Below are positions 9,511-27,959 of a stretch of 64,000 bases of DNA, piece by piece. The stretch is from Bacteroidota bacterium (GTDB lineage Bacteria; Bacteroidota; Bacteroidia; Bacteroidales; FEN-979): the NCBI GenBank assembly GCA_037138335.1, contig JBAXIO010000009.1, forward strand, positions 110,262 to 174,261. The letters run 5' to 3'. The translations under genes and the position numbers were made by a program. The notes under the pieces were generated by a model, which did no database searches, was not told where the DNA came from, and was given only the letters and a program-made list of their open reading frames with translations. Each line of letters starts with the position of its first letter. Positions within the stretch are counted from its first letter, which is position 1.

Positions 9511-10539
9511 ATGAATACCGAACGGCCTCCCTGGGTGACTTTCCTCATCAACTGCGTAATCTGGGTCTTTATTTTTTTCATTCCATTTCTTTTAATGGAA
9601 CCCAGGGGGGGAATACCTTCATATCTCCTGAGGGTAGGTGCCACCACGGTTCTGACTGTCATTGTTTACTATTTCAATTACCTCATCCTGATCCCGAAAT
9701 ACCTGTTTAAAAAGAAATTCCTGGCCTATATACTTGTTATACTGCTCACCCTTGTAATCTCCTGCATCCTAGTCGACCTGTATTATTATTTTGTTGTGTC
9801 GGTAGTCCAGAACTGGCACCACCGCCCCGAGCCGATTTTCAGCCGGGGCATGTGGGTGCCTTTGTTTCCACTGCTGACGGGGATTGCGATAGGGATCAGC
9901 ATCCGGCTGGCCAGGGAATGGGCGAGGGTTGAAAAGGAGCGCAGGGAACTTCAGGGAGAAAAGCTCCTTTCGGAACTGGCTTTTCTGAAATCCCAGGTTA
10001 ATCCGCATTTTCTTTTCAATACACTTAACAATATATGCGCCCTCGCAAGAAAAAAATCTGATGACACGGAACCTGCGATCATCAAACTTTCACAGATCAT
10101 GCGGTATATGATCACCGATTCCAGGCAGGACAAGGTAGGCCTGGAGGAGGAGGTTGAGTATCTTAATAATTTCATTGAACTTCAGAAAATCAGGCTAGCC
10201 GACAAGGTAAACATCCGATTTGATATTGAAGGCGACCTCTCGGCAATTCAGCTGGAGCCTTTGCTCCTGATACCGTTTGTGGAGAATGCATTTAAACACG
10301 GTGTAAGCTACAACGATAAGTCGAGTATCAATATAGAACTTAAAACGGTTTCAGGCGAGTTGTCATTCCTGGTTGAGAATTCCAAGCCAACAGTGAAAGA
10401 TACGTTAAAGCTCGACGAAGCGGGGATAGGACTGAAGAATGTGCGCCGCCGCCTGGAGTTGCTTTATCCCGGTAAACACCAACTGGAGATCCGGGATTCG
10501 GCATCAAATTATCTCATCATGTTAAAAATCAAAAAATAA
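9511..10539 (+). CDS. LytS/YehU-family sensor histidine kinase
   Basis: About 4 TM helices; ELAFLKSQVNPHFLFNTLNNI; LLIPFVENAFKHG; GIGLKNVRRRLELLYP. Confidence 0.93.
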   Translation: MNTERPPWVTFLINCVIWVFIFFIPFLLMEPRGGIPSYLLRVGATTVLTVIVYYFNYLILIPKYLFKKKFLAYILVILLTLVISCILVDLYYYFVVSVVQNWHHRPEPIFSRGMWVPLFPLLTGIAIGISIRLAREWARVEKERRELQGEKLLSELAFLKSQVNPHFLFNTLNNICALARKKSDDTEPAIIKLSQIMRYMITDSRQDKVGLEEEVEYLNNFIELQKIRLADKVNIRFDIEGDLSAIQLEPLLLIPFVENAFKHGVSYNDKSSINIELKTVSGELSFLVENSKPTVKDTLKLDEAGIGLKNVRRRLELLYPGKHQLEIRDSASNYLIMLKIKK

Positions 10540-11261
10540 TGATACGTTGCATTGCTATCGACGATGAGTCCCTTGCGCTGGACCTGCTTGAGGACAATAT
10601 CAGCAAGATCCCTTTTCTTGAACTGGCCGGCAGGTACACCAATGCCTTCGACGCACTTAACCTGATGCAGGAAAAGCCTGTCGACCTGCTTTTCCTCGAT
10701 ATCCAGATGCCCGACATCAGCGGGATACAGTTCCTGAAAAGCCTGAAGCAAAAACCCATGGTTATTTTCACCACTGCCTTTTCAAAATATGCCCTTGAAG
10801 GGTTTGAACTGGACGTGATCGATTACCTCTTAAAACCATATTCATTTGCCCGTTTCCTGAAAGCTGTAAATAAAGCCCATGAATTTCTAGAGTTACAGGA
10901 GAGAGCGAAAGAAATTCAGAAAGGCCCTGCCTTCGGATCTCATTATCTTTTTGTGAGGGCCGATTACAAACTCGTTAAAATCGACATTCAGGAAATATTA
11001 TATATAGAAGGCCTGAAGGATTATGTTAAAATTTATTGCGGCGAGAAACCGGTATTGACCCAGATGAGCATGAAGTCGATTGAAGAAAAGCTTCCGCCTC
11101 ATGATTTTATAAGGGTTCACCGCTCCTTTATCGTGGCTTTCAATAAGATTGATTTTATTCATAAGAGCTTTATTTCCATCAGGGGGAAGGAAATCCCTCT
11201 CAGTGACAATTACAAAGACAACTTTCTTTCCCTTGTTCAGCAAAACAAGATCATGGAATAG
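10539..11261 (+). CDS. LytTR-family response regulator
   Basis: CIAIDDE, FLDIQMPD, DYLLKP; C-terminal ILYIEGLKDYVKI...FIRVHRSFIV; start overlaps the kinase stop. Confidence 0.95.
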   Translation: MIRCIAIDDESLALDLLEDNISKIPFLELAGRYTNAFDALNLMQEKPVDLLFLDIQMPDISGIQFLKSLKQKPMVIFTTAFSKYALEGFELDVIDYLLKPYSFARFLKAVNKAHEFLELQERAKEIQKGPAFGSHYLFVRADYKLVKIDIQEILYIEGLKDYVKIYCGEKPVLTQMSMKSIEEKLPPHDFIRVHRSFIVAFNKIDFIHKSFISIRGKEIPLSDNYKDNFLSLVQQNKIME

Positions 11262-11279
11262 AGATAAACACATTAAATT

Positions 11280-12620
11280 ATGAAACGAAGTACCTTATTA
11301 TTTTGCATCCTGATGTACTACTCCTTTGCGGGATGGGCGCAGAAATCACCCTGGACGTTCCAGCAATGCCTTGACACCGCTTTGAAGCGCAACATCTCGG
11401 TGAACCAGAGCAGGCTTTCGAATGAACTGAATAAAATAAGCCTCGAACAGTCCCGTGCAAACCGCATTCCCAGCGTGAGTGCCAATGTAGGGGAATCGTT
11501 CAACTTCGGTAAAAATGTTGATGCCACGACCAACAGCTTTGTCATAGGTTCATTCCATTCAGGGAATTACGGGGTAAGTGCAAGCTACAACCTGTTCAAT
11601 GGTTTGCAGAACAATAACACGATCAAGCAATACAAGCTGAACATTGAGGCCGGGAAATTTGACATTGAGAATGCCAAGAATGCAGTAATACTAAGTGTCA
11701 CGACCGGGTACCTGCAGATATTACAGCAATACGAGATCCTCAAAGTAGCACAGAACCAGCTTGCGGCGGATTCGGTGCAGGTTGACAGGACCCAGAAAAT
11801 GCTGAATGTGGGAAGGGCTGCCGAGAGCGATCTTCTGCAAATCCAGTCGCAACTTGCAACTGATTATCTTTCATTTGTAAATGCGCAGAATCAACTGGAT
11901 ATTGCAAGGGTAACCCTGATGCAGCTGATGCAGATCCCCGTGATCGATAAATTTGATGTTGAAGTGCCGACCCTTGTTGAACCCGGGCTTGATCTCCTGC
12001 AAAGCAAGGAAGTGATCTATCAGAAAGCCCTGGCTTTAATGCCCCAGATCCAATCGGCCTCGCTTAAGACCTCCAGTTCCCTGATGGCAATTAAAATTGC
12101 AACCGGGGCCCGTTGGCCGAGGTTGACTTTTTCGGCCGGGATGAGTTCAAACTATGCCTCCAGCGGCAGGAATCCCGACGTCAATGCCGATGGTTATCCG
12201 TGGTACACGCAGGTATGGAATAATGTGGGACAATCAATGAACCTTAACCTGAGCATTCCCATATATAGTAACCGCTCAATACAAAGCAGCATTGAACGGG
12301 CAACAGTTAACTCTAAAACAGCCGCACTGAATGAGCTCAACATCCAGCAGACGCTGAGAATGAACATTGAACAGTCCTATACCAGCCTGAAGTCTTCTTC
12401 AAGGTCTTATGAAGCCGGAAAGATCCAGCTTAGTTCCACAGAGATCACTTATAAGAATGCAGAGAAGAAGTATAATGTAGGGGTCATGAGTGTGACCGAC
12501 TACCTGATCCAGAAAAACAACTATACCAACTCGGTATCGAATTTAATACAGGCAAAATATAATTTCATTTTTCAGTCGAAGATCCTTGATTTTTACCAGG
12601 GGAAGGCAATATCATTTTAA
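11280..12620 (+). CDS. TolC-family outer-membrane efflux protein
   Basis: Signal peptide, WTFQQCLDTALKRN, two OEP-like halves, C-terminal KILDFYQG. Confidence 0.9.
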   Translation: MKRSTLLFCILMYYSFAGWAQKSPWTFQQCLDTALKRNISVNQSRLSNELNKISLEQSRANRIPSVSANVGESFNFGKNVDATTNSFVIGSFHSGNYGVSASYNLFNGLQNNNTIKQYKLNIEAGKFDIENAKNAVILSVTTGYLQILQQYEILKVAQNQLAADSVQVDRTQKMLNVGRAAESDLLQIQSQLATDYLSFVNAQNQLDIARVTLMQLMQIPVIDKFDVEVPTLVEPGLDLLQSKEVIYQKALALMPQIQSASLKTSSSLMAIKIATGARWPRLTFSAGMSSNYASSGRNPDVNADGYPWYTQVWNNVGQSMNLNLSIPIYSNRSIQSSIERATVNSKTAALNELNIQQTLRMNIEQSYTSLKSSSRSYEAGKIQLSSTEITYKNAEKKYNVGVMSVTDYLIQKNNYTNSVSNLIQAKYNFIFQSKILDFYQGKAISF

Positions 12621-12641
12621 AAATTTAACTCATTATATCAA

Positions 12642-14147
12642 ATGAAAAAGACCTATTGGATTATCCTGATTGTTGTTGTTCTTGGCCTGCTCACAGGGGC
12701 TTATTTCATATTCGGAAAGAAGGCTGAAAAAGCAGTGGAATTTCGCACGGGGAAAGTTGAAAAAGGCGACGTTCAGGTTGTGGTGACAGCCACGGGGACA
12801 TTAAGCGCCGACACTACGGTTGCCGTAGGCACCCAGGTATCGGGGATCATCACAAAGATTTTTGTGGATTTCAATTCGGTTGTCCGCAAGGGCCAGGTCA
12901 TTGCGGTACTTGACACTACTTTCCTTGCAGCTTCTGTGGAGGATGCCAAGTCCAGCCTTTTCAGGACCCAGGTTCAGACCAGGCTTACCAAGCGCAACTA
13001 TGAACGCAACAAAACACTTCTCGAACAAAAAGTCATAGCGCAATCCGACTTTGACCAGAGCCTCTCTGATTATGAAACTGCCCAGGCCAATGAAAGATCA
13101 TCAAAATCATCGCTTGACAGGGCCTATATCAACCTGCGTTATGCCACGATCATAGCCCCGGTCTCTGGTGTCGTCATTTCGAGGAGCGTAGATGTGGGGC
13201 AAACGGTAGCTGCAAGTTTCAGCACCCCTACCTTGTTTTCCATTGCCAATGACCTTACGAAGATGCAGCTCCAGGCCAGCATTGATGAAGCCGATATAGG
13301 GAAGATAAAAGTCGGACAGGATGTCACTTTCAGGGTTGACGCTTATATGGACCAGACATTTTCGGGAACGGTAAGGCAGGTCAGGCTTCAGCCTGTGACC
13401 TTGCAGAATGTCGTCAATTACACAGTGGTTATTGACGTGCCGAATCCCGACAAGAAGCTTATGCCCGGGATGACGGCTAACCTCACTGTCAAGATACAGG
13501 AAGCGCTCAACGTAATTAAAATACCGTCGGCCTCGCTGAGGTTCTGGCCGCCACAGGATTATCTTGAAAAACACATGAAAGAATACCCCGATTCCACCCA
13601 GAAGATGCTCGAAAGGGTACTGAAGTTCATGGCCCGCAAGCAATCCGGACAAGGTTTCGGCGGCCAGGGCGGAAGCGGAGGAGCGGCAGGTTCGGGTATG
13701 GCGGCAGGCAATGGAGCCCAGGCCAGCGGCGGCGGACAGCAGCCGGCAGCCGGCGGTCGGCAGCCGGCAGGTGGCGGACAGCAGTCGGCAGCCGGCGGTC
13801 GGCCGATGGCATTCGGCAATCAGCAGGCGGCAGGTGGCGGACAGCAGTCGGCAGGCCAGGGCCGTCAGGGCTGGGGAGGCCAGGGTGGTGGCTTCAACCG
13901 CCAGAAAATGGGCATGGTATGGGTAAAACAGGGCGATTTGCTTTTCCCCCGCCGTGTTAAAACCGGGATCTCCGACAACAGCTCCACCGAGGTTGAAGGT
14001 AATTTAAAAGAAGGGGATGAACTGGTGACTGGCATTGTAAATACAAGTTCAACCCAGCAAACAACCCAGCAGCAAAACCCGTTCGCTCCTACGATGGGTC
14101 GTCCGCCCCAGGGTGGTGGAAGCGGCGGCGCAAGAGGAGGACGCTGA
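12642..14147 (+). CDS. MacA-like periplasmic adaptor (efflux membrane fusion protein) with a Gly/Gln-rich insertion
   Basis: N-terminal TM; VTATGTL, VGTQVSG, DFNSVVRKGQ, GQTVAASFSTPTLF, IDEADIG, LMPGMTAN. Confidence 0.92.
   Translation: MKKTYWIILIVVVLGLLTGAYFIFGKKAEKAVEFRTGKVEKGDVQVVVTATGTLSADTTVAVGTQVSGIITKIFVDFNSVVRKGQVIAVLDTTFLAASVEDAKSSLFRTQVQTRLTKRNYERNKTLLEQKVIAQSDFDQSLSDYETAQANERSSKSSLDRAYINLRYATIIAPVSGVVISRSVDVGQTVAASFSTPTLFSIANDLTKMQLQASIDEADIGKIKVGQDVTFRVDAYMDQTFSGTVRQVRLQPVTLQNVVNYTVVIDVPNPDKKLMPGMTANLTVKIQEALNVIKIPSASLRFWPPQDYLEKHMKEYPDSTQKMLERVLKFMARKQSGQGFGGQGGSGGAAGSGMAAGNGAQASGGGQQPAAGGRQPAGGGQQSAAGGRPMAFGNQQAAGGGQQSAGQGRQGWGGQGGGFNRQKMGMVWVKQGDLLFPRRVKTGISDNSSTEVEGNLKEGDELVTGIVNTSSTQQTTQQQNPFAPTMGRPPQGGGSGGARGGR
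13730..13855 (+). repeat. In-frame degenerate heptamer tandem array (CGGCAGY-like x18) inside the adaptor gene
   Basis: cggcgga cagcagc cggcagc cggcggt cggcagc cggcagg tggcgga cagcagt ...; 126 bp = 18 x 7, encoding GQQPAAG/GRQPAGG-type 7-aa repeats. Confidence 0.8.
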
Positions 14148-14148
14148 T

Positions 14149-14904
14149 ATGAAAGAGACTATCATTTCGGTTAATCACCTGGTCAAGATCTATAAAATGG
14201 GAGACCTCGAAGTGCATGCACTGAGGGGGATAAAGCTCGAGATCTATAAAAGCGATTTTGTGGCTATCATGGGGAAAAGCGGTTCAGGCAAATCCACCTT
14301 CATGAACATCGCAGGCTGCCTCGATGTGCCAACGAAAGGTGAATATATGCTCGATGGCGTGGATGTGGGAAAACTGAATAAAGACGAGCTTGCCCATCTG
14401 CGGAATATAAAAATCGGGTTTGTATTCCAGTCGTTCAACCTCCTTTCACGTACATCAGCCCTTGAAAATGTTGAACTGCCCCTGATGTACAACAGTAAAA
14501 TCACTTCGAAAGAAATGAAGGAACGCTCAATAAATGCCCTTGAATCAGTGGGCCTTGCCAGCCGTGCTCACCATTTCCCAAGCCAGCTTTCAGGAGGGGA
14601 ACAGCAACGTGTTGCCATCGCAAGGGCCCTGGTGAACAACCCGGTCGTGATCCTTGCCGATGAACCTACAGGGAACCTCGATACACGCACATCCGTAGAG
14701 GTGATGAGCATTTTCCAGAAGCTGAATACCCAGGGCATCACAGTCATAATTGTGACCCATGAACCCGATATTGCTGCTTATACAAACAGGAATGTGACTT
14801 TCAGGGACGGGCGGATTCAAAAGGATTTAACGGTGGAAAAACCCCGGAATGCCGCGATAGAACTTTTAACCATGCCCGTTTTATCAGAGGAGGATACGAT
14901 ATGA
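14149..14904 (+). CDS. ABC transporter ATP-binding protein (MacB/LolD family)
   Basis: Walker [40 protein letters not shown]; ATG 14149 follows the adaptor stop. Confidence 0.95.
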
Positions 14905-16121
14905 AACTCAGAAACCAGTTAAAGGCGGCATTACGGTCATTAGGCAAGAATAAAATGAGGACTTTCCTCACCATGCTTGGGATCATCATCGGTGTTGCGT
15001 CGGTGATTGCCATGCTCGCTATAGGTCAGGGTTCCAAGGAAAGCATCCAGAAACAGATTGCCAATCTCGGCACAAACCTCCTGACCGTGTTCCCTTCGGC
15101 CAGTATGACCGGGGGAGTAAGGATGGAAGCAGGGTCAAGCGTGAAGCTGACGATGGACGATTACAAAGCGGTTTCAAGCCGTTGCCCGGCCGTTTTATAT
15201 TCCACCCCAACCGTCAGGACCAGCGGGCAGCTTATTGCAGGCGGCCAGAACTGGAGGACCACGGTATGGGGGGTCTACCCCGATTATTTCAATATCCGTA
15301 ACCTGGAAATTGAAAAAGGCGCAGCCTTTACTTTGAACGACGACCGTACAGCAACGAAAGTATGCGTGATCGGGCAAACGGTGAATAAATACTTATTTGG
15401 TGAAGGCCAGGATCCCACCGGCAAGATCATCCGCATTAACAAAATCCCCTTCCAGGTAATAGGCCTGATAGCAACGAAAGGCCAGAATGCCTGGGGCCAG
15501 GACCAGGACGATATCGTGATTGCGCCTTTCAATACTGTACAAGTGCGCATGATGACCGTGGCCTATATCCAGAGCATCATGCTGTCGGCCACATCAGAAA
15601 AAATGATACCTGAAGCTACCGATGAAGTCACCCAGGTTTTAAAAGAACGGCACAGGCTGGGGCCTTCGGAAGACCCGGATTTCAGCATCCGTTCACAGGC
15701 TGATATTTCCAGCGCCGCAACGGCCACCTCCGGCATATTAACCGCATTGCTTGCAAGCATAGCAAGTATTTCACTGCTCGTGGGGGGTATCGGCATCATG
15801 AATATCATGCTGGTATCGGTTACCGAAAGGACCCGTGAGATTGGTATCAGGATGGGCGTAGGCGCCAGGGGCAGGGACGTATTGCTTCAGTTCCTTATCG
15901 AAGCCCTGATGATCAGCCTTATCGGCGGGTTACTCGGCGTAGGTCTCGGGATCATAGCCTCAGGCGTGATAGCCAGTATTATGAGCTGGCCTGTCACCAT
16001 CACGATCCAGTCGATTGTGCTTTCGTTCATGTTTTCGACCGTGATCGGTATTTTCTTCGGATGGTACCCGGCCCGCAAGGCTGCAAGCCTTAATCCTATC
16101 GATGCATTAAGGTACGAATAG
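14901..16121 (+). CDS. MacB/FtsX-family ABC permease
   Basis: RTFLTMLGIIIGVASVI; VGGIGIMNIMLVSVTERTREIGIR; PARKAASLNPIDALRYE. Confidence 0.95.
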   Translation: MKLRNQLKAALRSLGKNKMRTFLTMLGIIIGVASVIAMLAIGQGSKESIQKQIANLGTNLLTVFPSASMTGGVRMEAGSSVKLTMDDYKAVSSRCPAVLYSTPTVRTSGQLIAGGQNWRTTVWGVYPDYFNIRNLEIEKGAAFTLNDDRTATKVCVIGQTVNKYLFGEGQDPTGKIIRINKIPFQVIGLIATKGQNAWGQDQDDIVIAPFNTVQVRMMTVAYIQSIMLSATSEKMIPEATDEVTQVLKERHRLGPSEDPDFSIRSQADISSAATATSGILTALLASIASISLLVGGIGIMNIMLVSVTERTREIGIRMGVGARGRDVLLQFLIEALMISLIGGLLGVGLGIIASGVIASIMSWPVTITIQSIVLSFMFSTVIGIFFGWYPARKAASLNPIDALRYE

Positions 16122-16129
16122 GGGGCTGA

Positions 16130-16888
16130 TCACTTTCTCCCGGTAAGATCCAGTATCCCGTTGATGAACGTCAGGGGATGGGGCGGATTACCCGGTACAT
16201 AAAGATCGGGACTGCAGGTTTCAGGGAAGCTCCTGTTTGTTTGCCTGCTGTTCTCAAAGATGCCTCCGCTGATGGCCGCCGTTCCGGCAAGGACCAAAAT
16301 TTTCGGGGAAGGTATGGCGTCATAGCAGATCTGTAAGGCTTCAGCCATATTCCCGCTGATGGGGCCGGTGAGCACGATGCCGTCGGCATGCCTTGGGGAT
16401 GCAACGAATTCAATTCCATAACGGCCCATGTCAAAGTTCACGTTACCTGCTGCATTGAGTTCCATTTCGGCCGAATTATCTCCCCCTGCCGATACCTGCC
16501 GCAGTTTAAGTGCATGGCCGAAATAGGAACTTATCTCCTTTCTTACCATGGCCTGGTCGATCGTAATTGGAATATCTTCCCCGGCTTTTATGATCAGTTT
16601 CTCCCTGTTGTTTGTTGCCAGCCTGTGATCGTTGGTAAACCTTATCCTGCCTGCAGTGGCGAAGCTGCATTCCATGCAGAATTCGCATTTCCCCAGGTCG
16701 AGGGTGAAGGGCCCTGAAGTGATTGCTCCCACAGGGCATACATTCACGGCCGATTTTTCTTCAGCCGGGGTGATATCGCCGCTGATCACGGGCCGGCCGC
16801 GGAACCCTTCGGGAATAACGGCTTTGCGAAGGTCTTTCACGTACTGCCTGCCGTGGCGGCGGAATATTCTGATAATGCTTAATGCCAT
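16130..16888 (-). CDS. Ehr/Hyf small subunit (NuoB/HyfI-like) fused to an N-terminal ferredoxin-like (NuoI/HyfH-like) segment; proximal-cluster cysteines absent
   Basis: FRGRPVI, CPVGAI, KCEFCMEC (ferredoxin); FVASPRHADGIVLTGP (NuoB family). The Cys positions read GGDNSAEME, GTAAISGG and PGNPPHP. Confidence 0.85.
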   Translation of the reverse strand: MALSIIRIFRRHGRQYVKDLRKAVIPEGFRGRPVISGDITPAEEKSAVNVCPVGAITSGPFTLDLGKCEFCMECSFATAGRIRFTNDHRLATNNREKLIIKAGEDIPITIDQAMVRKEISSYFGHALKLRQVSAGGDNSAEMELNAAGNVNFDMGRYGIEFVASPRHADGIVLTGPISGNMAEALQICYDAIPSPKILVLAGTAAISGGIFENSRQTNRSFPETCSPDLYVPGNPPHPLTFINGILDLTGRK

Positions 16889-16891
16889 CGT

Positions 16892-18427
16892 TTATAGATC
16901 ATGTCCGCAGTATGATAAATTGTAGCTCTTATTGCATAAAGGGAAATCTGATATTTCCTGGTTCCTTACAGCCAGTGCCAGCGCCATCCAGTTATGGAAT
17001 GAAGGGTCTTTTATTTTGTAATGAATGATCTTCCCATTCTGGTCTGTGACTGCGGAATGCATTATCTCTCCCCTCCAGCCCTCGGCCAGCGACAAGGCAA
17101 AGCTTGAAGGACGAAGGCTGAATTCATATAAGGGTTGGGCCGGTTCCCTTTCAAAATCCTTTCCCATAAGAAAATCCCTGATCAGCAGAATTGATTTATC
17201 AACTTCCTGCTTCCTGAGCATGGCCCTGGCCCAGACATCCCCCTGGTGAAGGGTTACGGGCTCATAAACTATATCAGTAAAGGCCTGGAAGGGATGCGAC
17301 CACCTGATATCACGTTTGACCCCGCTGCTCCTGGCTGCCATGCCAACAGCGCCTATCATCCCTGCCTGGCGGGCGCTGACTTTGCCGATGCCTTCAAAAC
17401 GGCTGAGGACGCTGGGGTTTGTGAACATCTCATGCGTGATCTGCCCGTATCTTTCTTCTACTTCTTTCAGTTTCGAGAGCAGGAGTTTAATAAAACCTCC
17501 GTTTAAAGGATAATGGCTTCCGCCCGTACGCACCAGTCCTTTCCCGAAACGGTTCCCGCACCACGACTGGGTTGTGTTGATCATGATAGTACGGAGGGCT
17601 TCGTTAACAACCTGCCCGAACTGGTAAGCAATATCTGTGCAAAGGGCTGCCGTGTCGCCAATGTGGACTGCAATCCGCTCAAGCTCAAGGGCAATGGTCC
17701 GTTCCCTTTGCAGGGCTGCAGCAGGTGTAACCCCGGCAAGGGTTTCGAGAAGCTGGGCATGGGTTAATGAGTGGCCTGCGGCAGTATCGCCTGCAATGCT
17801 TTCAGCTAGAACTGCACGCTGTATCCCTGTTTGCTTTTCCAGGAACAGCGTTTCCATCCCCCTGTGCTGGAACCCCAGCTGGATCTCGAGGTGAAGTACC
17901 TTCTCGCCATTGCAGCTGAAACGGAAGTACCCGGGTTCAATAATCCCGGCATGGATGGGGCCTACACCAACTTCATGGATACCCTCGCCTTCGATGGAGA
18001 AAAAGGGATAAGGGATGGGGGATGCAGGATGAATGATTCCTGATGCGGGATCCTGTATCCTGCATCCTGCATCCGGATTATGCAAACGTACCGGTTTCAG
18101 CCAGGGATGACCGCTGAATACAATCCCATACTGTTCCCATATCTCACGCTCATACATATGAAATGAAGAATGCAAAGCAGTAAGTGATGAAAGAACATGC
18201 AGTGGGGAGGCAGCCTGCTCGTGGGAAAGCAATACAAAATCTTTTTTATGGTCAGAGGCGATACAGCAAAAAAACCTCAATGCTGCTCCAAGCGGTACCG
18301 CGTGATATGTAACGCAGTGACATCCCTCATCCGCCATCAGTTCATTCACCTTTGCAAAAAATTCCGGATAATCAAACAAAGGGATGTCGGCGAGCGGAAC
18401 AATAAAAGGGTTTGTATTTATTGTCAT
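16892..18427 (-). CDS. Ehr large subunit (NuoCD/HyfG-like) without [NiFe]-binding CxxC motifs
   Basis: YEREIWEQYGIVFSGHPWLKP (NuoC part); VGVGPIHAGIIEPGYFRF, HRGME, ELERIAVH, EGWRGE, KDPSFHNW (NuoD part). L1 reads ESIAGD and L2 reads DFPLCNKSYNLSY. Confidence 0.88.
   Translation of the reverse strand: MTINTNPFIVPLADIPLFDYPEFFAKVNELMADEGCHCVTYHAVPLGAALRFFCCIASDHKKDFVLLSHEQAASPLHVLSSLTALHSSFHMYEREIWEQYGIVFSGHPWLKPVRLHNPDAGCRIQDPASGIIHPASPIPYPFFSIEGEGIHEVGVGPIHAGIIEPGYFRFSCNGEKVLHLEIQLGFQHRGMETLFLEKQTGIQRAVLAESIAGDTAAGHSLTHAQLLETLAGVTPAAALQRERTIALELERIAVHIGDTAALCTDIAYQFGQVVNEALRTIMINTTQSWCGNRFGKGLVRTGGSHYPLNGGFIKLLLSKLKEVEERYGQITHEMFTNPSVLSRFEGIGKVSARQAGMIGAVGMAARSSGVKRDIRWSHPFQAFTDIVYEPVTLHQGDVWARAMLRKQEVDKSILLIRDFLMGKDFEREPAQPLYEFSLRPSSFALSLAEGWRGEIMHSAVTDQNGKIIHYKIKDPSFHNWMALALAVRNQEISDFPLCNKSYNLSYCGHDL
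18005..18074. repeat. Heptamer array with inverted arm inside the Ehr large-subunit gene
   Basis: gggataa gggatgg gggatgc aggatga atgattc ctgatgc gggatcc, then tgtatcc tgcatcc tgcatcc (reverse complement of GGATGCA). Confidence 0.7.
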
Positions 18428-19863
18428 CGCGGCAGGTTTTGAATAATATCATTGATCAGGCCCCTGAAAAAAGCCGGTTGGGAAAAGCATATAAAAATCA
18501 CGAGGCCGAACAGCACAAATTGTGAAACTGTTTGCCAGGGATTTACTTTCTCATGCTGTTTGCCCGATGAAGTGCGGGGCTGTGAAAAAACAATGTGTAA
18601 AACCCTTGTAAGCAGGGCATACAGAACGTAGCAAAGCAGGAGGGCGGCCACCGCCAGGTAGAGGTAATCCCCGTTTGCCGCCATGGCTTTGAACATCAGC
18701 AGTTCCGAAATAAACATTCCTGAAGGGGGGATTGCGGTTATGCAAAGAAGACCCAGTAAAAGAGCAGTTGCGCCGGCGGGGTAGAGGTTCATATAATTTC
18801 CCGATTCGTCAAGGTTATAAGTGCCCATGACTTTGTACGATTGCCCCATCTGGTAGAAAAGGCCCGCTTTGGCGAAGGAGTGAAGAATGATATGCAGTAT
18901 GGCTGCGTAGTATCCTATACCGCCCATTCCAAGCGCTATCGCGACAATACCCATATTTTCCAGGCTGGAGTACGCCAGCATCCGCTTGTTGTGTTTGGCT
19001 TTAAGCATGTACCCTGCCGAGATCAGGAGTGATAGGAAGCCTGAAAGAAGCAGCACATGGTTCATGAACGGCAGGATGGGAGTGGCCGAGAACAGGGCAT
19101 AAATGCGGAAAATAGCCAGGAACCCTACGTTCATCAGGGTAGTTGAAATAAAAGCGCTGATAGGCGGGGGAGCCACGGTATGCGCATCCACGGTCACCGT
19201 ATGCATCGGGAAGAGACCCATTTTGGTGCTGTAGCCCACGAGTACGAAAACAAATGCGATCTTAAGGTACAGAGGGTTTGCCATGCGGGCAATTTCGGTG
19301 ATGGAAGAAAATGAAAGATGCAGGAGGCGGGCATCCCTTACTGTGAACCCCAGGAAAAGAATACCGATATATGCGAGGGCGATACCTATTGAACAAACAA
19401 AAACATATTTCCAGGTAGCTTCAAGGGCAATGGCTGTGCGGTCATGGTAGATGAGGGCAGCTACGGCAAGCGTCGTGGCTTCCACGAAGATCCATACCGT
19501 GGTCATCCCGTTGGCCAGGTATGCTCCCGTCATCGAAGCAATGAGGGCAATGAGGGCAGCATGATAGATGGCATAGATCCTGGGCGGATCATTTTTAACA
19601 TAAATAAACCCATGGTAAACCGTAGTGATGCTCAGTATTGAAAGCACCGACTGCAGCAGCAGGCCCAGGGTGTCGAATGTAAAATAATCGAGGACCGTCT
19701 CACCCCTGTGCATCCAGCAATAGATCGTAAATGCAATATGGACAAGGGTGTAAAATGATGTAAGCGTTCGTGCAAGGGGTTTTGAATGGATAAGCCCCAC
19801 AAGCAGGCCGAGCACCAGGGAGATGGCGAAAAAGAGGATGAATATGTAAGCAGCCTCAGTCAT
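18424..19863 (-). CDS. hyfF: Proton-conducting antiporter-like subunit (HyfF/NuoM-N family)
   Basis: WIFVEATTLA, LEATWKY, GYSTKMGLFPMH, DAHTVAPPPISA, KRMLAYSSLENMG, HSFAKAGLF. Confidence 0.88.
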   Translation of the reverse strand: MTEAAYIFILFFAISLVLGLLVGLIHSKPLARTLTSFYTLVHIAFTIYCWMHRGETVLDYFTFDTLGLLLQSVLSILSITTVYHGFIYVKNDPPRIYAIYHAALIALIASMTGAYLANGMTTVWIFVEATTLAVAALIYHDRTAIALEATWKYVFVCSIGIALAYIGILFLGFTVRDARLLHLSFSSITEIARMANPLYLKIAFVFVLVGYSTKMGLFPMHTVTVDAHTVAPPPISAFISTTLMNVGFLAIFRIYALFSATPILPFMNHVLLLSGFLSLLISAGYMLKAKHNKRMLAYSSLENMGIVAIALGMGGIGYYAAILHIILHSFAKAGLFYQMGQSYKVMGTYNLDESGNYMNLYPAGATALLLGLLCITAIPPSGMFISELLMFKAMAANGDYLYLAVAALLLCYVLYALLTRVLHIVFSQPRTSSGKQHEKVNPWQTVSQFVLFGLVIFICFSQPAFFRGLINDIIQNLPR

Positions 19864-20473
19864 CTTTCAAAATCGTTAAATCATCAGTCTGCTGCCTCAG
19901 CCGCATCACAAAGATCCCCAGTATCAGCACGCTCACAAAGATATCCAGCAGTATCCCGAGGTTAATAAGCATGGGGATCTCGCTGCCAATGGCCAGCGAA
20001 AGCAGCAGCACTGCATTTTCGATCACCAGGAACCCAACCAGGTGCGAGAAGATCTTACGGTGCGAAATGATAAGGAACAGCCCGGTAAATACGGCAAAGA
20101 ATGAAACAATAAAAAACAGCAGGTTATAGGGGGTGGTATTCATTGAGAATGAAACCACTATACTCAGCAACAGCCCCATGGTCACAAATAACAGTGAATA
20201 GAAAGACGGAAGGGCTTTTTCGTGGACCCTTGCCACGCCTGTTTTTCGGATCACCGTAAACAGCAGGTAAGGCACCACGATCACTTTAAAAAGCAGGGTT
20301 TCTATGGCGACGAAAAGCACAGTGGCGAGGGTGATCCTGTCGAGCTGCAAAAAGGATAAACCAAACAGCAACAACCCCTGGAGGCCGACAAGTCCTGCAT
20401 ATATCCTGAACCTCTCGGTTACGCTGAGGTAGATCAGGCTGATCGCAAAGACGATGATGAGCATTGAGGTCAT
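19856..20473 (-). CDS. hyfE: HyfE-like membrane subunit
   Basis: Highly hydrophobic; ETLLFKVIVVP, GFLVIENA, GILLDIF; lies between hyfC-like and hyfF-like genes. Confidence 0.85.
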   Translation of the reverse strand: MTSMLIIVFAISLIYLSVTERFRIYAGLVGLQGLLLFGLSFLQLDRITLATVLFVAIETLLFKVIVVPYLLFTVIRKTGVARVHEKALPSFYSLLFVTMGLLLSIVVSFSMNTTPYNLLFFIVSFFAVFTGLFLIISHRKIFSHLVGFLVIENAVLLLSLAIGSEIPMLINLGILLDIFVSVLILGIFVMRLRQQTDDLTILKDD

Positions 20474-20474
20474 A

Positions 20475-21389
20475 TCAGCGGATGAGGTTGCGGGTTAACA
20501 GTAATACAACGATAAAAGCGATCAGTGCGATGGAACTCAGGGTAACGATGAACTGCGGATTTTTAGCCAGTTTTTTTCTGGCGCGGAATGATTCCATGAG
20601 CCCGATGGCAGCAGCAAACCCTGCCTGGACAAGGAAGAACAGCGGCATATTCGCCCCCAGCCATCCGCCTTCAACAGGTAAAATTAAATTCGCGATAAGC
20701 CCCCCGTACAAAACGAATTTGAGGTTTGTCCCTGTCTGGATCAGGGCCAGGTCGACGCCGCTGTAATCGAGTATCATTACTTCGTGGACCATGGTGAGTT
20801 CGAGATGTGTTTTAGGGTCATCAACAGGCATACGGCTGTTTTCTATCATTGCGATCTGGACCAGGAGGTAAATTGCAATGGCTCCTGCGATCAGGGAGAA
20901 TTCGCCTGCAAACTGGAAATGTGAAAAGATACCCTGCATTGAAAGTTGTCCTGAAAGCAGAGACAGTGTCCCAAGCAAAATGAAAAAAGCCGGTTCGGTA
21001 AGCATCGAATAAAGGGCTTCACGGTTGGCGCCCATGCCTTCGAAGCTGCTCCCGGTATCGAGTGCGCCAAGGATGAAGAGAAGTTTGCCAAGGGCCAGCA
21101 GGTAAGCAAAGAGGATGAAGTCGCCTTCAAACCCAAATGCAGAAGGCATACCGGGGAAAGGCAGTAAAAGCAGGGCACAAAAAATAGTGGCGAGGTAAAC
21201 GGCGGGGGCCAGCCTGAAGATGAAACTGGTAGTTGTGCTGAACACGCTGCTTTTCCTGAAAAAAAGGTTAATGTTCTTCCATGGCTGCAGTAATCCCGGC
21301 CCTTTGCGGCCGCTTGCAATGCTTTTAACCCTGAGGATAATCCCGGGGAAAAAGATTGCAGATGCTATAGCCAGCAGGGTTCCCGTCAT
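20475..21389 (-). CDS. hyfC: HyfC/HycD (NuoH-like) membrane subunit
   Basis: GRKGPGLLQPW, ALDTGSSFEGMGANRE, ENSRMPVDDPKTHLELTMVHEVMILDYSG; ATG 21389 overlaps the upstream stop (ATGA). Confidence 0.9.
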   Translation of the reverse strand: MTGTLLAIASAIFFPGIILRVKSIASGRKGPGLLQPWKNINLFFRKSSVFSTTTSFIFRLAPAVYLATIFCALLLLPFPGMPSAFGFEGDFILFAYLLALGKLLFILGALDTGSSFEGMGANREALYSMLTEPAFFILLGTLSLLSGQLSMQGIFSHFQFAGEFSLIAGAIAIYLLVQIAMIENSRMPVDDPKTHLELTMVHEVMILDYSGVDLALIQTGTNLKFVLYGGLIANLILPVEGGWLGANMPLFFLVQAGFAAAIGLMESFRARKKLAKNPQFIVTLSSIALIAFIVVLLLTRNLIR

Positions 21390-23410
21390 ATCAGTTTCAG
21401 ATAAAGAAGAACAAAGATCAGGAGGATAAAAATAAATGCATAAAGCACGTAATGTCTGATGTTGCCGGTTTGAAGCCGGGCCAGCTTTTTCAGTACCAGC
21501 CACGACAAGTCGGTGAGCTTGCCCAGGCCTTTGCTGAAAATATCCCCGGTTTGAATATGCATTGAACGTTTGTGCGGGAAGATATCCTCAGCTGCAATGG
21601 CCCTGAACTCCTCCCTGTTCTGCAACACAGGCTGGGCCAACTCTGAGAGGTTCCCTGAAAATGAAGCCCCGGTATATTGCTGCCTCGCGGTCCCATGGGT
21701 ATACCCGCAACCCCAGGTGGGGCCGTATATGACTTCCCGATTTTTCAGCAATCGCAATCTTAACAAAAGTATTGCGGTGACAAGGCTTACCAGGATAAGC
21801 CCGAAAAGACTGATTTTACTTAATGCGACGGCAGGAAATATACCCGCAGGCAACATCCCCGGATGGAACTGGCTTTCGACAAGCCCGGCGATGGGAGTGA
21901 TAAACACAAGTGGCATCAGTCCGATCCCGAGGATCACAAATGCAATCAGTAACTGGGGAAAGATCATGTCACTGGTTACTGTGCCTGGTTGTATAGGGAT
22001 GTTTTTTCGGGGGGTGCCGAGAAAGCTTATGCCAAAAGCCCTTGAGAAGCTGAAAATGGCCAGTCCCCCTATCAGCGTAAGGCTGAGAATGATCAGGAGG
22101 AAGAGGATGGACAGGTATTCGTTCCCTGCGCCAAGGCCTTTGAAGAACCCTGCATATAAAAGGAATTCCGAGATGAACCCGTTGAGGGGAGGAAGTGCGC
22201 AGATAGCAGCCGAGCCGAAAAGGAACAAGCCGGCAGTGCGGGGAAGCGAATGTACCAGCCCTCCCAGTTCTTCGATATTCCTTGTGTGTGTTGCCCTGAA
22301 AACCGAGCCCGAGCCGTAAAAAAGAAGGGATTTAAACAGTGAATGGTTCAGGACATGGAGCAGGCTGCCCGTGAAGCCCAGAACGGTAAGGACGGGATTA
22401 TGCAAGGCAATCCCTATGGATCCCAGGCCCATTCCCAGGCCGATGATCCCTATGTTTTCGATGGTGGAATAAGCCAGTACCCGTTTAATGTCTTTCTGGG
22501 TTGTCGAAAATAAAATGCCCAGTAATCCGGTGCCGGTTGAGACAATGAGCAGGACCAGGCCAATGCTGTACCAGTCGGACTGCACCGAAGTCAATACGCG
22601 GAAAATGCCGTAGATCCCCATTTTGATCATCACCCCCGACATCACCCCCGAAACATGGGACGGGGCGGCAGGATGTGCTTCGGGGAGCCAGGTGTGGAAA
22701 GGCATGAACCCTGCTTTGATGCCGAAACCTGCAAAGAACAGAAGAAAAAGCCCTGTGTTGTTGTGATTTGAGAACCAGGTGGGGAGAGCATCGAAACTCA
22801 TTTGGCCTGTGCCGGCTTCGGTGATAAGGAAGGCAATCAGCAGGAAAAGAAAGCCGATATGCATCTGTACCAGGTAATTGACTGCCGTTTTCAGGGTTGA
22901 CCGTTTTTCAGCCTCGAATAAAATCAGCATGAAAGAAGAAACGGCCATCAGTTCCCAGGCGATGAGAAATGAAAGACCGTCACGCAGGGTTAACACGGCA
23001 AGCATGGAAAGGTGAAGCCATGCATAGCTGAAATAATGAAGTGAAAACTGGGCCGGGTTTTTGGTTTTTTCATATGCCTTGAGATAGCCCCTCGAGTAGA
23101 GCATTCCTGTAAGCACTGTAAAATTGGTTACAAGGATGAAAAAGGAACTTAACTTATCGATGGTGAAACGGAGTTCCCCCAGGTCTCCTTTGAAAATCCA
23201 GTTTGTGGCCTGAAGGCTTGCCGTAATTGCCGATCCCGTTTTGAGGCTTGAGGTAACAGGAACCGAAAGAAATTGAAGTATGGCAGGGGTCGAAGTAACA
23301 AGGATGATAAACAGGATAAGAGAAAGGGTATAATAATAGCGCACCTTCCCGGGAACTACCAGGATCAGAAACGAAAGTAAAACCGCCGCAGGGATAAAGT
23401 ATTGCGCCAT
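21386..23410 (-). CDS. hyfB: HyfB/HycC (NuoL-like) antiporter-like subunit
   Basis: FLIAWELMAVSSF, GFGIKAGFMPFHTWLPEAHPAAPSHVSGVMSG, KRVLAYSTIENIG, NHSLFKSLLF, LPPLNGFISE, TWGCGY. ATG 23410 preferred. Confidence 0.9.
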   Translation of the reverse strand: MAQYFIPAAVLLSFLILVVPGKVRYYYTLSLILFIILVTSTPAILQFLSVPVTSSLKTGSAITASLQATNWIFKGDLGELRFTIDKLSSFFILVTNFTVLTGMLYSRGYLKAYEKTKNPAQFSLHYFSYAWLHLSMLAVLTLRDGLSFLIAWELMAVSSFMLILFEAEKRSTLKTAVNYLVQMHIGFLFLLIAFLITEAGTGQMSFDALPTWFSNHNNTGLFLLFFAGFGIKAGFMPFHTWLPEAHPAAPSHVSGVMSGVMIKMGIYGIFRVLTSVQSDWYSIGLVLLIVSTGTGLLGILFSTTQKDIKRVLAYSTIENIGIIGLGMGLGSIGIALHNPVLTVLGFTGSLLHVLNHSLFKSLLFYGSGSVFRATHTRNIEELGGLVHSLPRTAGLFLFGSAAICALPPLNGFISEFLLYAGFFKGLGAGNEYLSILFLLIILSLTLIGGLAIFSFSRAFGISFLGTPRKNIPIQPGTVTSDMIFPQLLIAFVILGIGLMPLVFITPIAGLVESQFHPGMLPAGIFPAVALSKISLFGLILVSLVTAILLLRLRLLKNREVIYGPTWGCGYTHGTARQQYTGASFSGNLSELAQPVLQNREEFRAIAAEDIFPHKRSMHIQTGDIFSKGLGKLTDLSWLVLKKLARLQTGNIRHYVLYAFIFILLIFVLLYLKLI

Positions 23411-23500
23411 TGCTTTGCAAAGTAAAAGCAAAGCTTTATAGGGTCACCCGTTTAAAGCGAGAACTTATAAACAGGGATATAGTGAAAAAATAAATGAAGC

Positions 23501-24187
23501 TTAGTAGTATTTATCAACCTTGGGATTTCCCTTGCTGTCATAATAGGTCCACTTCCCGCTTTTTTTCCCGTTGGTTAAATATCCGTCAAAATCCTTCAGG
23601 CCGTTTTTATGATAACCTACAACCGGCCCTGTATAAGGAGCCCCGTCAAGGAATTTTATCGCAGCGCCCTTCAACTGCGTCCAGGGTACAGGCTCCTGTG
23701 CCTTTTCCACTTTTACTTCACGTGGCTTTGCTTCCCGGGGCTTAGATGGCTTTGGTGCTGCAATGGCTTTTTCTTCCTGGACTGCTGCCGGTGGAGCAGA
23801 AGCTGCGGGTTTTACGGAATCAACCAGGGTGCCCTCACTCGAAAGAAGCTTGCCATACTTATACATTTCCACAGCCTGTTGCTGCCCGTTGTCGTGCCAG
23901 TAGGTCCATGTGCCATCTTTGACTCCTTCTTTGAAATTTCCTTCCATTTGCTTTTGCCCGTTTGGGTAATAATAGACCCATAAACCTTCACGCAATCCTT
24001 TATCGAGTTTTCCCTGCATGGTAACTTTCCCGTTATTGTACTCTGCCACATCGCCGGTGAATGGTTTATCTTTGTTGGCAAGGTAAAAAACGCCATTGCG
24101 GTCCTGCAACTGGCTGAAAGTCGCAACATCAGGAGAACAGGCATAAAGTAAGATCAAAATGCCGGAAATGAGTAAAATTTTTTTCAT
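23501..24187 (-). CDS. Lipoprotein with MORN/YwqK-like repeats and a Pro/Ala/Lys-rich linker
   Basis: MKKILLISGILILLYAC lipobox; repeats GLREGLWVYYYPNGQK, GVKDGTWTYWHDNGQ, GKKSGKWTYYDSKG. Confidence 0.75.
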   Translation of the reverse strand: MKKILLISGILILLYACSPDVATFSQLQDRNGVFYLANKDKPFTGDVAEYNNGKVTMQGKLDKGLREGLWVYYYPNGQKQMEGNFKEGVKDGTWTYWHDNGQQQAVEMYKYGKLLSSEGTLVDSVKPAASAPPAAVQEEKAIAAPKPSKPREAKPREVKVEKAQEPVPWTQLKGAAIKFLDGAPYTGPVVGYHKNGLKDFDGYLTNGKKSGKWTYYDSKGNPKVDKYY

Positions 24188-24400
24188 GACGGTGGTTTTT
24201 AAGTTCAAACTTAGATTTTTACTAAACTTACCCGGATTACGCTTGTGTTAAAAAATTAATCGCATGACTGAAAATCAAGTACCAAATTAATAATTATACA
24301 TTCAAAATTAATAAAATTAAACAGGTATCAAATATATTTTGCCAAAACAATACATTACCTTAGCGCACAGGAATCCGTTTCATAAATTTCAAATCACCTG

Positions 24401-27887: not shown

Positions 27888-27959
27888 TAGCCCCGATAGG
27901 AATCGAACCTATATTTAAAGTTTAGGAAACTTCCGTTCTATCCATTGAACTACGGGGCC
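27888..27959 (-). tRNA. tRNA-Arg (anticodon CCT), CCA not encoded
   Basis: Reverse complement GGCCCCGTAGTTCAATGGATAGAACGGAAGTTTCCTAAACTTTAAATATAGGTTCGATTCCTATCGGGGCTA folds into a cloverleaf with anticodon loop TT-CCT-AA and T-loop GGTTCGATTCC; TACCTTTG promoter box at 27970-27977. Confidence 0.95.

Follow-up and report, generated by a model that had tools for sequence, protein, structure and literature searches.

The open reading frame at 16130..16888 (minus strand) of the window, the whole 64,000-nucleotide stretch of DNA that was analysed, encodes the EhrS-type small subunit of a six-gene Ehr complex (ehrA-B-C-D-L-S). The protein belongs to a large, mainly Bacteroidales clade in which the proximal (N2-equivalent) [4Fe-4S] cluster of the NuoB-like domain is an ancient loss. 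The small subunit retains one of three ancestral iron-sulfur clusters, its ferredoxin-like domain having been cut from two clusters to one. We put forward, with about even weight, the explanation of a broken canonical electron wire, under which the complex would be a redox-independent, at most redox-gated, H+ or Na+ translocating module.

The small subunit is 252 aa in length, starts with ATG and is encoded by the last gene of the operon. A ferredoxin-like domain (residues ~30–100), equivalent to half of NuoI/HyfH, is fused in it to a NuoB/HyfI-like domain (residues ~117–252). Residues 141–247 matched the NuoB/20 kDa subunit family PF01058 in Pfam (E 6.2e-17, 62 bits, cut-off 27), while the Fer4 match of the ferredoxin-like part stayed below threshold (16.6 bits, cut-off 21.1) and the match to MbhN was weak (E 0.006). 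The AF2 model of the small subunit is confident (pLDDT 94.1, pTM 0.90) and its top Foldseek match is P. furiosus MbhJ (6cfw_J), with a TM-score normalised to the target of 0.83 and an rmsd of 1.9 Å over 131 columns. In sequence and in fold the protein is therefore a PF01058 member, but the four cysteines expected for a proximal/N2 [4Fe-4S] cluster are absent from it.

The other five genes precede it on the same minus strand and all six reading frames overlap or abut. The ehrL-like large subunit (16892..18427, 511 aa) joins a NuoC-like to a NuoD/HyfG-like part (PF00346 and PF00329). It is preceded by ehrD (18424..19863, 479 aa), a HyfF/NuoN-like antiporter-type subunit (PF00361, E 4e-39), by ehrC (19856..20473, 205 aa), a HyfE-like membrane subunit whose match to the NCBIfam hydrogenase 4 membrane subunit (E 2e-12) lies below the cut-off, by the NuoH/HyfC-like ehrB (20475..21389; PF00146, E 4e-26) and by ehrA (21386..23431, 681 aa), a HyfB/NuoL-like antiporter-type subunit (PF00361, E 8e-51). 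The longest reading frame of ehrB reaches back to a GTG at 21503; its start is likely the ATG at 21389, which forms an ATGA overlap with the ehrA stop, and relatives of ehrB (301–329 aa) begin at the ehrA stop. PF00361 twice, PF00146, PF00346 with PF00329, and PF01058 make up the Ehr gene set. The top NCBIfam matches of the operon were HyfB, NuoH, HyfE, HyfF, NuoD and NuoB, all under the curated cut-offs, including ehrA against hydrogenase 4 subunit B (E 4e-150, 501 bits, cut-off 667) and ehrD against hydrogenase 4 subunit F. When ehrD was aligned to MbhH, the TM5 Glu, TM7 Lys and TM12 Lys were found to be retained, and ehrC is 93–100% identical in the nearest relatives. A fluoride riboswitch (RF01734) was not matched in the window, in the 5′ region (E up to 1), in 15 related loci or in the whole genome (97.7% complete), and a promoter and terminator scan gave counts not above those of shuffled sequence. 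Four exact contigs of metatranscriptome library X20 fall within the operon, none of them on the S gene; DNA carry-over could account for these contigs, which are a hint of transcription at most.

The loss of the proximal cluster is seen in all three motifs that normally carry its ligands. The sequence-only reading had given these as GGDNSAEME, GTAAISGG and PGNPP and had claimed that all four ligands are gone; the three strings are present, and the loss was borne out by alignment to structurally solved homologues and to the NuoB proteins of the same genome. GGDNSAEME (residues 135–143; 16460..16486, minus strand) is the former CxxC motif with D137 and A140 in place of the cysteines, GTAAISGG (residues 202–209; 16262..16285, minus strand) is the former GxC motif with A204, a position held by Asp in most relatives, and PGNPP (residues 232–236; 16181..16195, minus strand) is the former PGCPP motif with N234. 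In residue-level HMMER alignments to MbhJ (6cfw_J, E 8e-22) and E. coli HycG (7z0s_G, E 3e-17), D137 and A140 fall under the two cysteines of the CxxC, A204 under that of the GxC and N234 under that of PGCPP, and both NuoB copies of the genome itself retain the CC...C...C pattern in these columns.

The replacements are far from random. D137 is present in 121 of 121 sequences and N234 in 120 of 121, and both were found in all 80 species-level genome loci. Residue 140 is more variable (A 93, C 13, T 7, S 6, V 2 among the 121 sequences) and residue 204 is mostly Asp (D 83, A 35, others 3). The same ligand pattern is shared by the 120 of 120 best protein clusters, at 61–99% identity, and by the 80 of 80 species-level loci; such a pattern lies far outside chance. 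Together with S139 and T203, which lie beside the former ligand positions, D137, A/C140, D/A204 and N234 form a conserved set of polar replacements in the clade. Changes specific to the group are concentrated at the former cluster site, namely S139, T203, D204 and N234 in the small subunit and C263, W289 and Q269 in the large subunit; position 263 of the latter is Cys in 29 of 29 relatives without the cluster and in 2 of 22 that keep it.

Single Asp ligands to [4Fe-4S] clusters occur in other proteins and D137 is invariant, which brings up a proximal cluster rebuilt with non-Cys ligands (Asp, Asn) or with a Cys of the large subunit, leaving the wire intact. None of the four ligand positions holds a Cys here and two of them are Ala, and we know of no cluster that takes no Cys at all from its own subunit. 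Elsewhere in the NuoB-like domain, C188 alone is a widely conserved Cys (112 of 121 sequences). We rejected this explanation on these grounds and regard it as very improbable.

The ferredoxin-like domain has been reduced as well, and the claim that it has ligands for one cluster only was upheld by an alignment with the NuoI proteins of the same genome and by the 121 sequences. A protein of the 2x[4Fe-4S] type (NuoI, HyfH, HycF, MbhN) has two CxxCxxCxxxCP motifs with eight cysteines; here motif 1 keeps its final C-P, as C51-P52 (16733..16738, minus strand), and motif 2 its first three cysteines, as C68-x2-C71-x2-C74 (16667..16687, minus strand). The fourth Cys (CP) of motif 2 is replaced by T78-A79 in this protein and mostly by L-P in relatives. 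All 121 sequences and all 80 genome loci have C51, C68, C71 and C74 and, as read from the aligned motifs, these four constitute the predicted ligand set of one [4Fe-4S] cluster. The corresponding cysteines of NuoI, in the motif 1 CP and the motif 2 CxxCxxC, are what we take to be the ligands of N6b, the neighbour cluster of N2.

The history of the loss can be followed in the relatives. Proteins about 48% identical keep all four proximal cysteines and some of them have an eight-Cys ferredoxin domain. In a tree of 64 rows, the 11-row clade that contains the protein under study is entirely without the cluster (SH-aLRT 97), and it is enclosed in an 18-row clade (SH-aLRT 98) whose remaining members have CCCC together with 8 or with 4 ferredoxin cysteines. 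The loss is thus nested among relatives that keep the cluster and defines a large Bacteroidales clade rather than being peculiar to this gene. At least two other lineages of the fused-subunit family have lost the cluster separately, and cluster-less lineages other than this one bear acidic residues at the ligand positions (ECED, DIDD, DSSD). Three of 10 representative relatives bear a name, namely Cloacimonadota, Wallbacteria and one 'hypothetical protein'.

A gene that has lost its cofactor ligands might be the decaying remnant of a once functional hydrogenase small subunit. The test set for decay was that relatives keep the cysteines while this copy is under relaxed selection; the first part holds, as stated above, and the second does not. 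The dN/dS values are 0.07–0.22 for S and 0.07–0.17 for L, a purifying selection of the same order as that on ehrA. It is true that L and S evolve 2–4 times faster than C and D (0.013–0.044 for ehrC and 0.025–0.046 for ehrD), as might be expected of decay. However, of 301 genomes sampled from the order, 77 (about a quarter) have one intact copy, none of these 77 copies contains a stop codon, 80 species-level genomes share the replacement residues and the model is confident (pLDDT 94). The operon structure is likewise retained: nearly every locus with sufficient flank shows the order A-B-C-D-L-S, and genomes in which the genes are unlinked still carry other parts of the set, as seen for C and L in 3 of 3 cases. 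That the reading frame and its operon are intact, as had been suggested, is hence confirmed. Decay was rejected on these grounds and seems to us scarcely credible; because of the low dN/dS and the presence of D137 and N234 in 80 of 80 loci, the loss appears to be a selected one.

The large subunit, as judged from alignments, lacks the Ni-Fe ligands. Its best structural matches are E. coli HycE (7z0s_E, E 1e-32) and P. furiosus MbhL (6cfw_L, E 2.5e-32), whose N-terminal CxxC falls on A212 and T215. The C-terminal pair lies past the end of the printed alignment, and an ungapped extension by eye places it on S505 and G508, with C507 adjoining. The hydrogenase-type Glu in GPIHxGxxEP is retained. 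The quinone His and Tyr of complex I are absent: in an alignment with Aquifex NuoD the Tyr column holds G213 and the column of the loop His holds I163/E164. Two motifs of the pocket, ESIAGDTxxGH (residues 209–219) and DFPLCNKSYNLSYCGHDL (residues 494–511), are nevertheless conserved in 72 sequences of the clade. The pocket motif is the same whether or not a relative has the proximal cluster, and the cluster-less clade conserves E164, C172, G213-D214-T215, H219, C290, C498, NKS and LSYCG to the same degree as the relatives in which the cluster is present. The equal conservation of these motifs suggests that the pocket of the large subunit still does something.

It is conceivable, though we think it doubtful, that the complex is still a redox-driven pump, in which the lone cluster would serve as the terminal or catalytic centre, or as donor to another substrate or partner, with conformational coupling to the membrane arm. 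The four cluster cysteines are invariant (121 of 121 and 80 of 80), L and S are under purifying selection and the pocket is conserved, including C172, C263, C290, C498 and C507. A precedent for cluster-based catalysis is the sulfur-reducing MBS complex, according to the abstract of PMC7684303. On the other hand, no conserved redox-partner gene recurs in the flanks of the operon among 80 loci. The pocket motif, being the same with and without the cluster, has apparently not been adapted to a new entry of electrons. Compared with N2, the retained cluster is presumably also farther from the membrane interface by one cluster-spacing.

The broken-wire explanation has in its favour the conserved, nested loss of the ligands, the intact and selected operon, the lack of a recurring redox-partner gene at the 80 loci and the retained TM5, TM7 and TM12 residues of the antiporter-type subunit. 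Since the proximal ligands are gone and the ferredoxin part holds a single cluster, an electron path like that of complex I or the group 4 hydrogenases is not available, in agreement with the suggestion of the sequence-only reading that the usual path into the large subunit may be absent; its further suggestion, another coupling mechanism or cofactor, is speculative. In the absence of the proximal cluster, the remaining one would be too distant from the pocket of the large subunit for physiological electron transfer, going by the geometry of solved complexes, and for that reason the antiporter-like subunits would no longer be driven by electrons delivered into the large subunit. The L/S arm may have been kept as a structural and conformational cap over the NuoH-like subunit, and the last cluster may have been kept for the ferredoxin fold or as a sensor. 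The invariance of its four cysteines, however, exceeds the need of a purely structural role, and the conserved pocket motifs of the large subunit and the purifying selection on L and S, of the same order as on ehrA, likewise speak against the broken-wire explanation. The former cluster cavity would be filled by the polar replacement residues, probably together with water.

A precedent for such filling is cluster N7 of complex I. According to excerpts of PMC8357420, the E. coli N7 ligands Cys228, Cys231, Cys235 and Cys263 correspond to Asp229, Asp232, Ser236 and Ser264 of the ovine enzyme, with water in the place of the cluster. The substitutions in mitochondrial NDUFS1 (the 75 kDa subunit of complex I) are of the same kind as D137, S139, T203, D204 and N234 here. 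N7 lies off the main electron path, so that its loss leaves the wire unbroken, whereas here it is the final cluster ahead of the catalytic pocket that has been lost.

The replacements may also have acquired a function of their own. The former cluster pocket could bind a mononuclear metal or cation through D137, D204, N234, C263 of the large subunit and C140 where it is present, which would either restore an electron path or power the pump as a charge or ion site. The non-random choice of residues (D137 and N234 near-invariant, D204 in 83 and C140 in 13 of 121 sequences), the clade-specific S139 and T203, the distribution of C263 (29 of 29 against 2 of 22) and the acidic residues of other cluster-less lineages (ECED, DIDD, DSSD) are consistent with binding. 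Yet 140 and 204 are both Ala in this protein, which leaves the small subunit with D137 and N234 alone, the proximity of C263 to the site is a matter of sequence register, and Asp or Ser with water is known to fill the place of a lost cluster passively (excerpts of PMC8357420). We consider metal or cation binding quite improbable. A further explanation, which we hold to be unlikely, is that the former N2 pocket (D137, D204, N234, S139, T203 and C263 of L) was turned into a fixed carboxylate/amide charge or an ion-binding site that drives or gates the antiporter-like subunits by protonation or cation binding, not by the arrival of electrons. If true, the complex would be a natural 'electron-free' complex I coupling machine with the Q-module still present and would offer a direct test of electrostatic coupling models.

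Among known systems, Ehr of Geobacter sulfurreducens (EhrA-D, L, S; GSU0739-45) has a like gene set, with NuoL/HyfB-, NuoH-, HyfE- and HyfF-like subunits together with L and S. Ehr complexes have a large subunit without the Ni-Fe cysteines and are of unknown function, according to excerpts of PMC6349859, PMC10284858 and PMC7894505. As far as these published descriptions of Ehr allow a comparison, the complex studied here is set apart by its fused half-ferredoxin and by the absence of proximal ligands. A literature search beyond the founding papers (Coppi 2005, Marreiros 2013) found no published statement on the loss of a small-subunit cluster in Ehr, and the remarks on Ehr in excerpts of PMC6349859, PMC10284858, PMC7894505, PMC4758237 and PMC7304191 concern the large subunit alone.

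E. coli formate hydrogenlyase and hydrogenase-4 (HycE/F/G, Hyf; PDB 7Z0S) and P. furiosus MBH (PDB 6CFW) supply the top sequence and fold matches of L and S, and HyfB, HyfE and HyfF of hydrogenase-4 are the nearest to the membrane subunits. In contrast to formate hydrogenlyase and MBH, the present complex has no Ni-Fe ligands, no proximal cluster and one ferredoxin cluster instead of two, its ferredoxin is fused to S, and no formate dehydrogenase or hyp genes adjoin the operon; without Ni-Fe motifs and an intact three-cluster wire it is not a group 4 [NiFe] hydrogenase. The NuoB fold is common to the complex I Q-module (TM 0.74–0.83 to many PSST/NuoB chains), as are NuoH-like and antiporter-like subunits, and the NuoC-NuoD fusion occurs in complex I of E. 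coli and Aquifex as well. Nevertheless, N2 and the quinone-site His and Tyr are absent, and the operon has no NuoE, NuoF or NuoG gene for an NADH-input module, so the complex is not a complex I either; two separate canonical nuo operons are located elsewhere in the genome. The Mrp-type cation/proton antiporters share PF00361 antiporter-like subunits, which here carry the TM5 Glu, TM7 Lys and TM12 Lys, and move ions without redox chemistry, as this complex would if the redox-independent explanation is right. NuoH-, NuoC/D- and NuoB-like subunits and one Fe-S cluster are present here and none of them in Mrp.

The N2/proximal cluster is the final relay for electrons and stands at the centre of several coupling models. 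To our knowledge it is treated as universal in the superfamily of complex I and group 4 hydrogenases. The clade described here combines a Q-module-like arm with an ion-translocating membrane arm and has no N2-type cluster. That it is widespread (77 of 301 sampled genomes of the order) and strongly selected suggests that such a machine can be of use even where the canonical electron wire is missing. A natural series is found among close relatives, with 8 ferredoxin cysteines and N2, with 4 and N2, and with 4 and no N2, and the pocket of the large subunit is unchanged throughout; this series is comparison material for the function of Ehr and for the share of the peripheral arm in coupling. Should the complex be a plain secondary antiporter, it would be a tidy case of cofactor loss and little beyond.

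The carriers include many lake and sediment Bacteroidales, in which the complex is strongly conserved. Two neighbours recur at its loci, a MacB-type ABC transporter on either side of the operon (17 of 80) and a TPR-like lipoprotein directly downstream of S (16 of 80).

The small subunit S, encoded on the minus strand at 16130-16888 (252 aa), had been described in the sequence-only reading as lacking all four ligands of the proximal (N2-equivalent) [4Fe-4S] cluster and as carrying a fused ferredoxin segment sufficient for one cluster. Alignment with NuoB-type proteins upheld the first point. In HMMER alignments to the solved MbhJ (6cfw_J) of P. furiosus MBH and HycG (7z0s_G) of E. coli formate hydrogenlyase, D137 and A140 fall in the CxxC columns, A204 in the GxC column and N234 in the Cys column of PGCPP, and the two NuoB proteins of the same genome, used as a contrast, have all four Cys in those columns. 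The second point also held on comparison of the N-terminal 110 residues with the two NuoI proteins of this genome and with eight-cysteine relatives: only the final C-P (C51-P52) of the first CxxCxxCxxxCP motif and only the first three Cys (C68, C71 and C74) of the second remain. In the 2x[4Fe-4S] ferredoxin fold each cluster is bound by three Cys of one motif and the CP Cys of the other; the four lost Cys are therefore exactly the set of one cluster and the four kept Cys that of the other. In terms of Thermus Nqo9, the kept set would correspond to N6b, the cluster adjoining N2. These alignments show that S has lost the ligands of both the proximal cluster and one ferredoxin cluster. The AlphaFold2 model of S, computed from an 83-sequence alignment, is of high confidence, with a pLDDT of 94.1 and a pTM of 0.90, and its predicted C-terminal domain superposes on MbhJ with a TM(target) of 0.83 and an rmsd of 1.9 A.

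Between 23431 and 16130 of the window, six closely packed minus-strand genes, of which S is the last, have junctions that overlap or are 1-3 bases apart and therefore form one operon. Pfam and NCBIfam matches identify the preceding genes as those for a HyfB/NuoL-like subunit (ehrA, 21386-23431), a NuoH-like subunit (ehrB, 20475-21389, likely start), a HyfE-like subunit (ehrC, 19856-20473), a HyfF/NuoN-like subunit (ehrD, 18424-19863) and a NuoC+NuoD/HyfG-like large subunit (L, 16892-18427). Residues 141-247 of S match PF01058 (NuoB) with 62 bits (cut-off 27) and its Pfam Fer4 match is below threshold; none of the six proteins reached the curated NCBIfam cut-offs. Aligned to MbhH, the HyfF-like subunit still has the Glu of TM5 and the Lys of TM7 and of TM12, and the TM8 Lys is replaced by Asn.

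When the large subunit is aligned to HycE and MbhL, A212 and T215 fall in the columns of the N-terminal Ni-Fe Cys, and alignment to Aquifex NuoD places G213 in the column of the quinone-site Tyr and I163/E164 in that of the loop His. L therefore lacks both the hydrogenase site and that of complex I. Among 72 L sequences of the clade, E164, C172, G213-D214-T215, G218-H219, C263, C290 and C498, together with the C-terminal N499-K500-S501 and L504-S505-Y506-C507-G508, are invariant or nearly so. An alignment of cluster-keeping relatives also served to retrieve 80 metagenome loci, in which 43 small subunits keep all four proximal Cys (CCCC) and 36 are of the D..N kind. The L motifs ESIAGD[TS]xxGH and DFPxCNKSFxLSYCGxDL are common to the neighbours of both kinds, so the pocket is older than the cluster loss and was not remodelled by it. 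The positions of S that separate cluster-less from cluster-keeping proteins are gathered at the former site (D137, S139, T203, D204 and N234), and those of L include C263, Q269, W289, K296, H37, C38 and C54. C263 is found in 29/29 cluster-less and 2/22 cluster-keeping sequences; by sequence register, it presumably lies on the helix that bears the N2-contacting His in complex I. Q269 (29/29) and W289 (28/29) are likewise typical of the cluster-less group, and in cluster-keeping relatives C263, Q269 and W289 are mostly Ala, Leu and Ile/Leu. The NuoC-like N-terminal part of L carries a His/Cys group in the cluster-less clade (H37 72/72, C38 68/72, C54 63/72, C55 53/72). The first three become Arg, Leu/Val and Ala in cluster-keeping relatives, and C55 is not among the group-specific positions; this His/Cys group is a possible metal site specific to the clade.

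Of 1.84 billion representative proteins searched, 3791 matched at E <= 0.001. Among the best 150 of these, fused ferredoxin-NuoB small subunits occur in every combination of ferredoxin Cys number and proximal ligands: eight ferredoxin Cys with CCCC (e.g. P0124 and P0125, which share 47-50% identity with the query), four with CCCC (P0129 of a Cloacimonadota MAG and P0132 of a Wallbacteria MAG), four without proximal ligands (the clade of the query) and eight without such ligands (the four sites read E,C,E,D in P0245 and D,S,S,D in P0206). A tree was built from 64 rows: five added clade members and 59 of the 151 aligned sequences (150 representatives and the query), these 59 being full length with all four sites aligned, after removal of fragments and of six sequences in which the first motif is deleted. 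The clade of the query (11 rows, SH-aLRT 97) is cluster-less throughout and is nested in an 18-row clade (SH-aLRT 98) whose remaining members are CCCC. The cluster state changes at least three times on this tree. The AU test rejects the placing of all 16 cluster-less rows in one clade (p 2e-6), for a group chosen after the tree was seen and with the four trait columns left in. Cluster loss among the relatives is stepwise. The six sequences outside the tree (P0221, P0230, P0231, P0250, P0252 and P0254) keep four ferredoxin Cys and have the whole first cluster motif of the NuoB domain deleted; their third ligand position is E, K, T, Q or A and their fourth D, Q, N, R or E.

The substitutions are conserved. 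Among the query and its 120 best-matching protein clusters (61-99% identity; n=121), D137 is found in 121, N234 in 120 and the four ferredoxin Cys in all 121, while position 140 is A in 93, C in 13, T in 7, S in 6 and V in 2, and position 204 is D in 83, A in 35 and another residue in 3. A scan of one genome per species gave 286 relatives, of which the best 80 were scored; nearly all of these 80 are labelled as Bacteroidota or Bacteroidales MAGs. This survey of homologues, which the sequence-only reading had proposed together with a dN/dS test for purifying selection, found D137 with N234, and the four ferredoxin Cys, in 80/80. In pairwise comparisons with eight relatives, dN/dS is 0.07-0.22 for S, 0.07-0.17 for L and 0.01-0.05 for the membrane subunits C and D; purifying selection is thus confirmed, and the constraint on the peripheral arm is 2-4 times weaker than that on the membrane core. 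The view that the reading frame and operon are intact also stands, since the order A-B-C-D-L-S is held in nearly all loci with sufficient flank. The operon is split in L061, L069 and L049 (genomes G001-G003), where S alone or an L-S pair lies among unrelated genes and HyfE-like and large-subunit genes are on other contigs in all three genomes. Of 301 genomes sampled from the order, 77 have a single copy at E <= 1e-40 (69/261 high-quality genomes, 63/209 genera), none with internal stops. Decay of S is rejected by these ratios, the invariant D137/N234, the kept gene order and the absence of internal stops in the 77 copies. As a separate observation, the B, C and D proteins of the related loci L002 and L003 are 91-97% identical to those of the window and the HyfB-like A just 67% (dN about 0.25), which suggests that ehrA was swapped or recombined among close relatives.

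Selection maintains the ligands of one cluster together with the fold of L and S, the pocket motif and the antiporter-type residues. Without the proximal cluster, the remaining cluster would not be able to feed the large-subunit pocket at useful rates, and the complex would therefore probably translocate ions without canonical redox drive. The L/S arm would then act as a structural or regulatory cap, and the last cluster may be retained for folding or sensing. A redox role of the complex stays the main rival, because the last cluster and the large-subunit pocket are both invariant. The boldest reading, in which the old proximal-cluster pocket would be a new metal or ion site, is less likely. 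The polar replacements in S resemble those at cluster N7 of mitochondrial complex I, a lost site that a table in PMC8357420 documents as filled by Asp, Asp, Ser, Ser and water. Ehr complexes have been described, without an assigned function, in PMC6349859, PMC10284858, PMC7894505 and PMC7304191. The literature searched, founding Ehr papers aside, gave no description of small-subunit cluster loss in Ehr; we regard S as a variant within the known Ehr kind, whose cluster loss appears new to that literature.

No redox partner gene recurs beside the operon among the 80 loci; the only recurrent neighbours are a MacB-type ABC transporter and a TPR-like lipoprotein. In the window, a run of ORFs on the opposite strand (9511-16121) adjoins the operon and ends in the gene of a 406-aa membrane protein that we label MacB-like on its sequence only and that is found at one end or the other of the operon in 17/80 loci; the other ORFs of the run are, at a guess, of efflux and regulator types. 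The lipoprotein gene (~183 aa) immediately follows S, in the same orientation, in 16/80 loci (e.g. L064:5643-6194) and is absent from the window. A 235-aa MORN-repeat lipoprotein-like gene (23501-24208) precedes ehrA by 70 bases, on the same strand, and is kept there in the closest relatives only (L001, L002 and L004). Four exact contigs of one metatranscriptome library lie inside the operon, none on S, a weak hint that the operon is transcribed; an RNA-library contig (23349-23594) bridges the junction of the MORN gene and ehrA.

The genome itself (3.99 Mb, 97.7% complete) contains two canonical nuo operons, in which NuoB is normal, and, apart from these, a hydrogenase locus, read from ORFs, with a 369-aa NuoB-like small subunit and a 572-aa large subunit; the Ehr complex is therefore an extra system. 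From ORF order and sizes on contigs C12 and C15, one nuo operon is of the 11-subunit type and the other has NuoE/F/G-like genes, and the hydrogenase locus has small-subunit, large-subunit and cytochrome-b-like genes, after which come apparent maturation (hyp-like) genes. Searches of the window, the whole genome and 15 related loci found no fluoride riboswitch; the sole Rfam match in the window is a tRNA gene (27888-27959, minus strand). DNA of the window occurs in metagenomes from 12 studies, the sources being lakes, fresh water and ponds.
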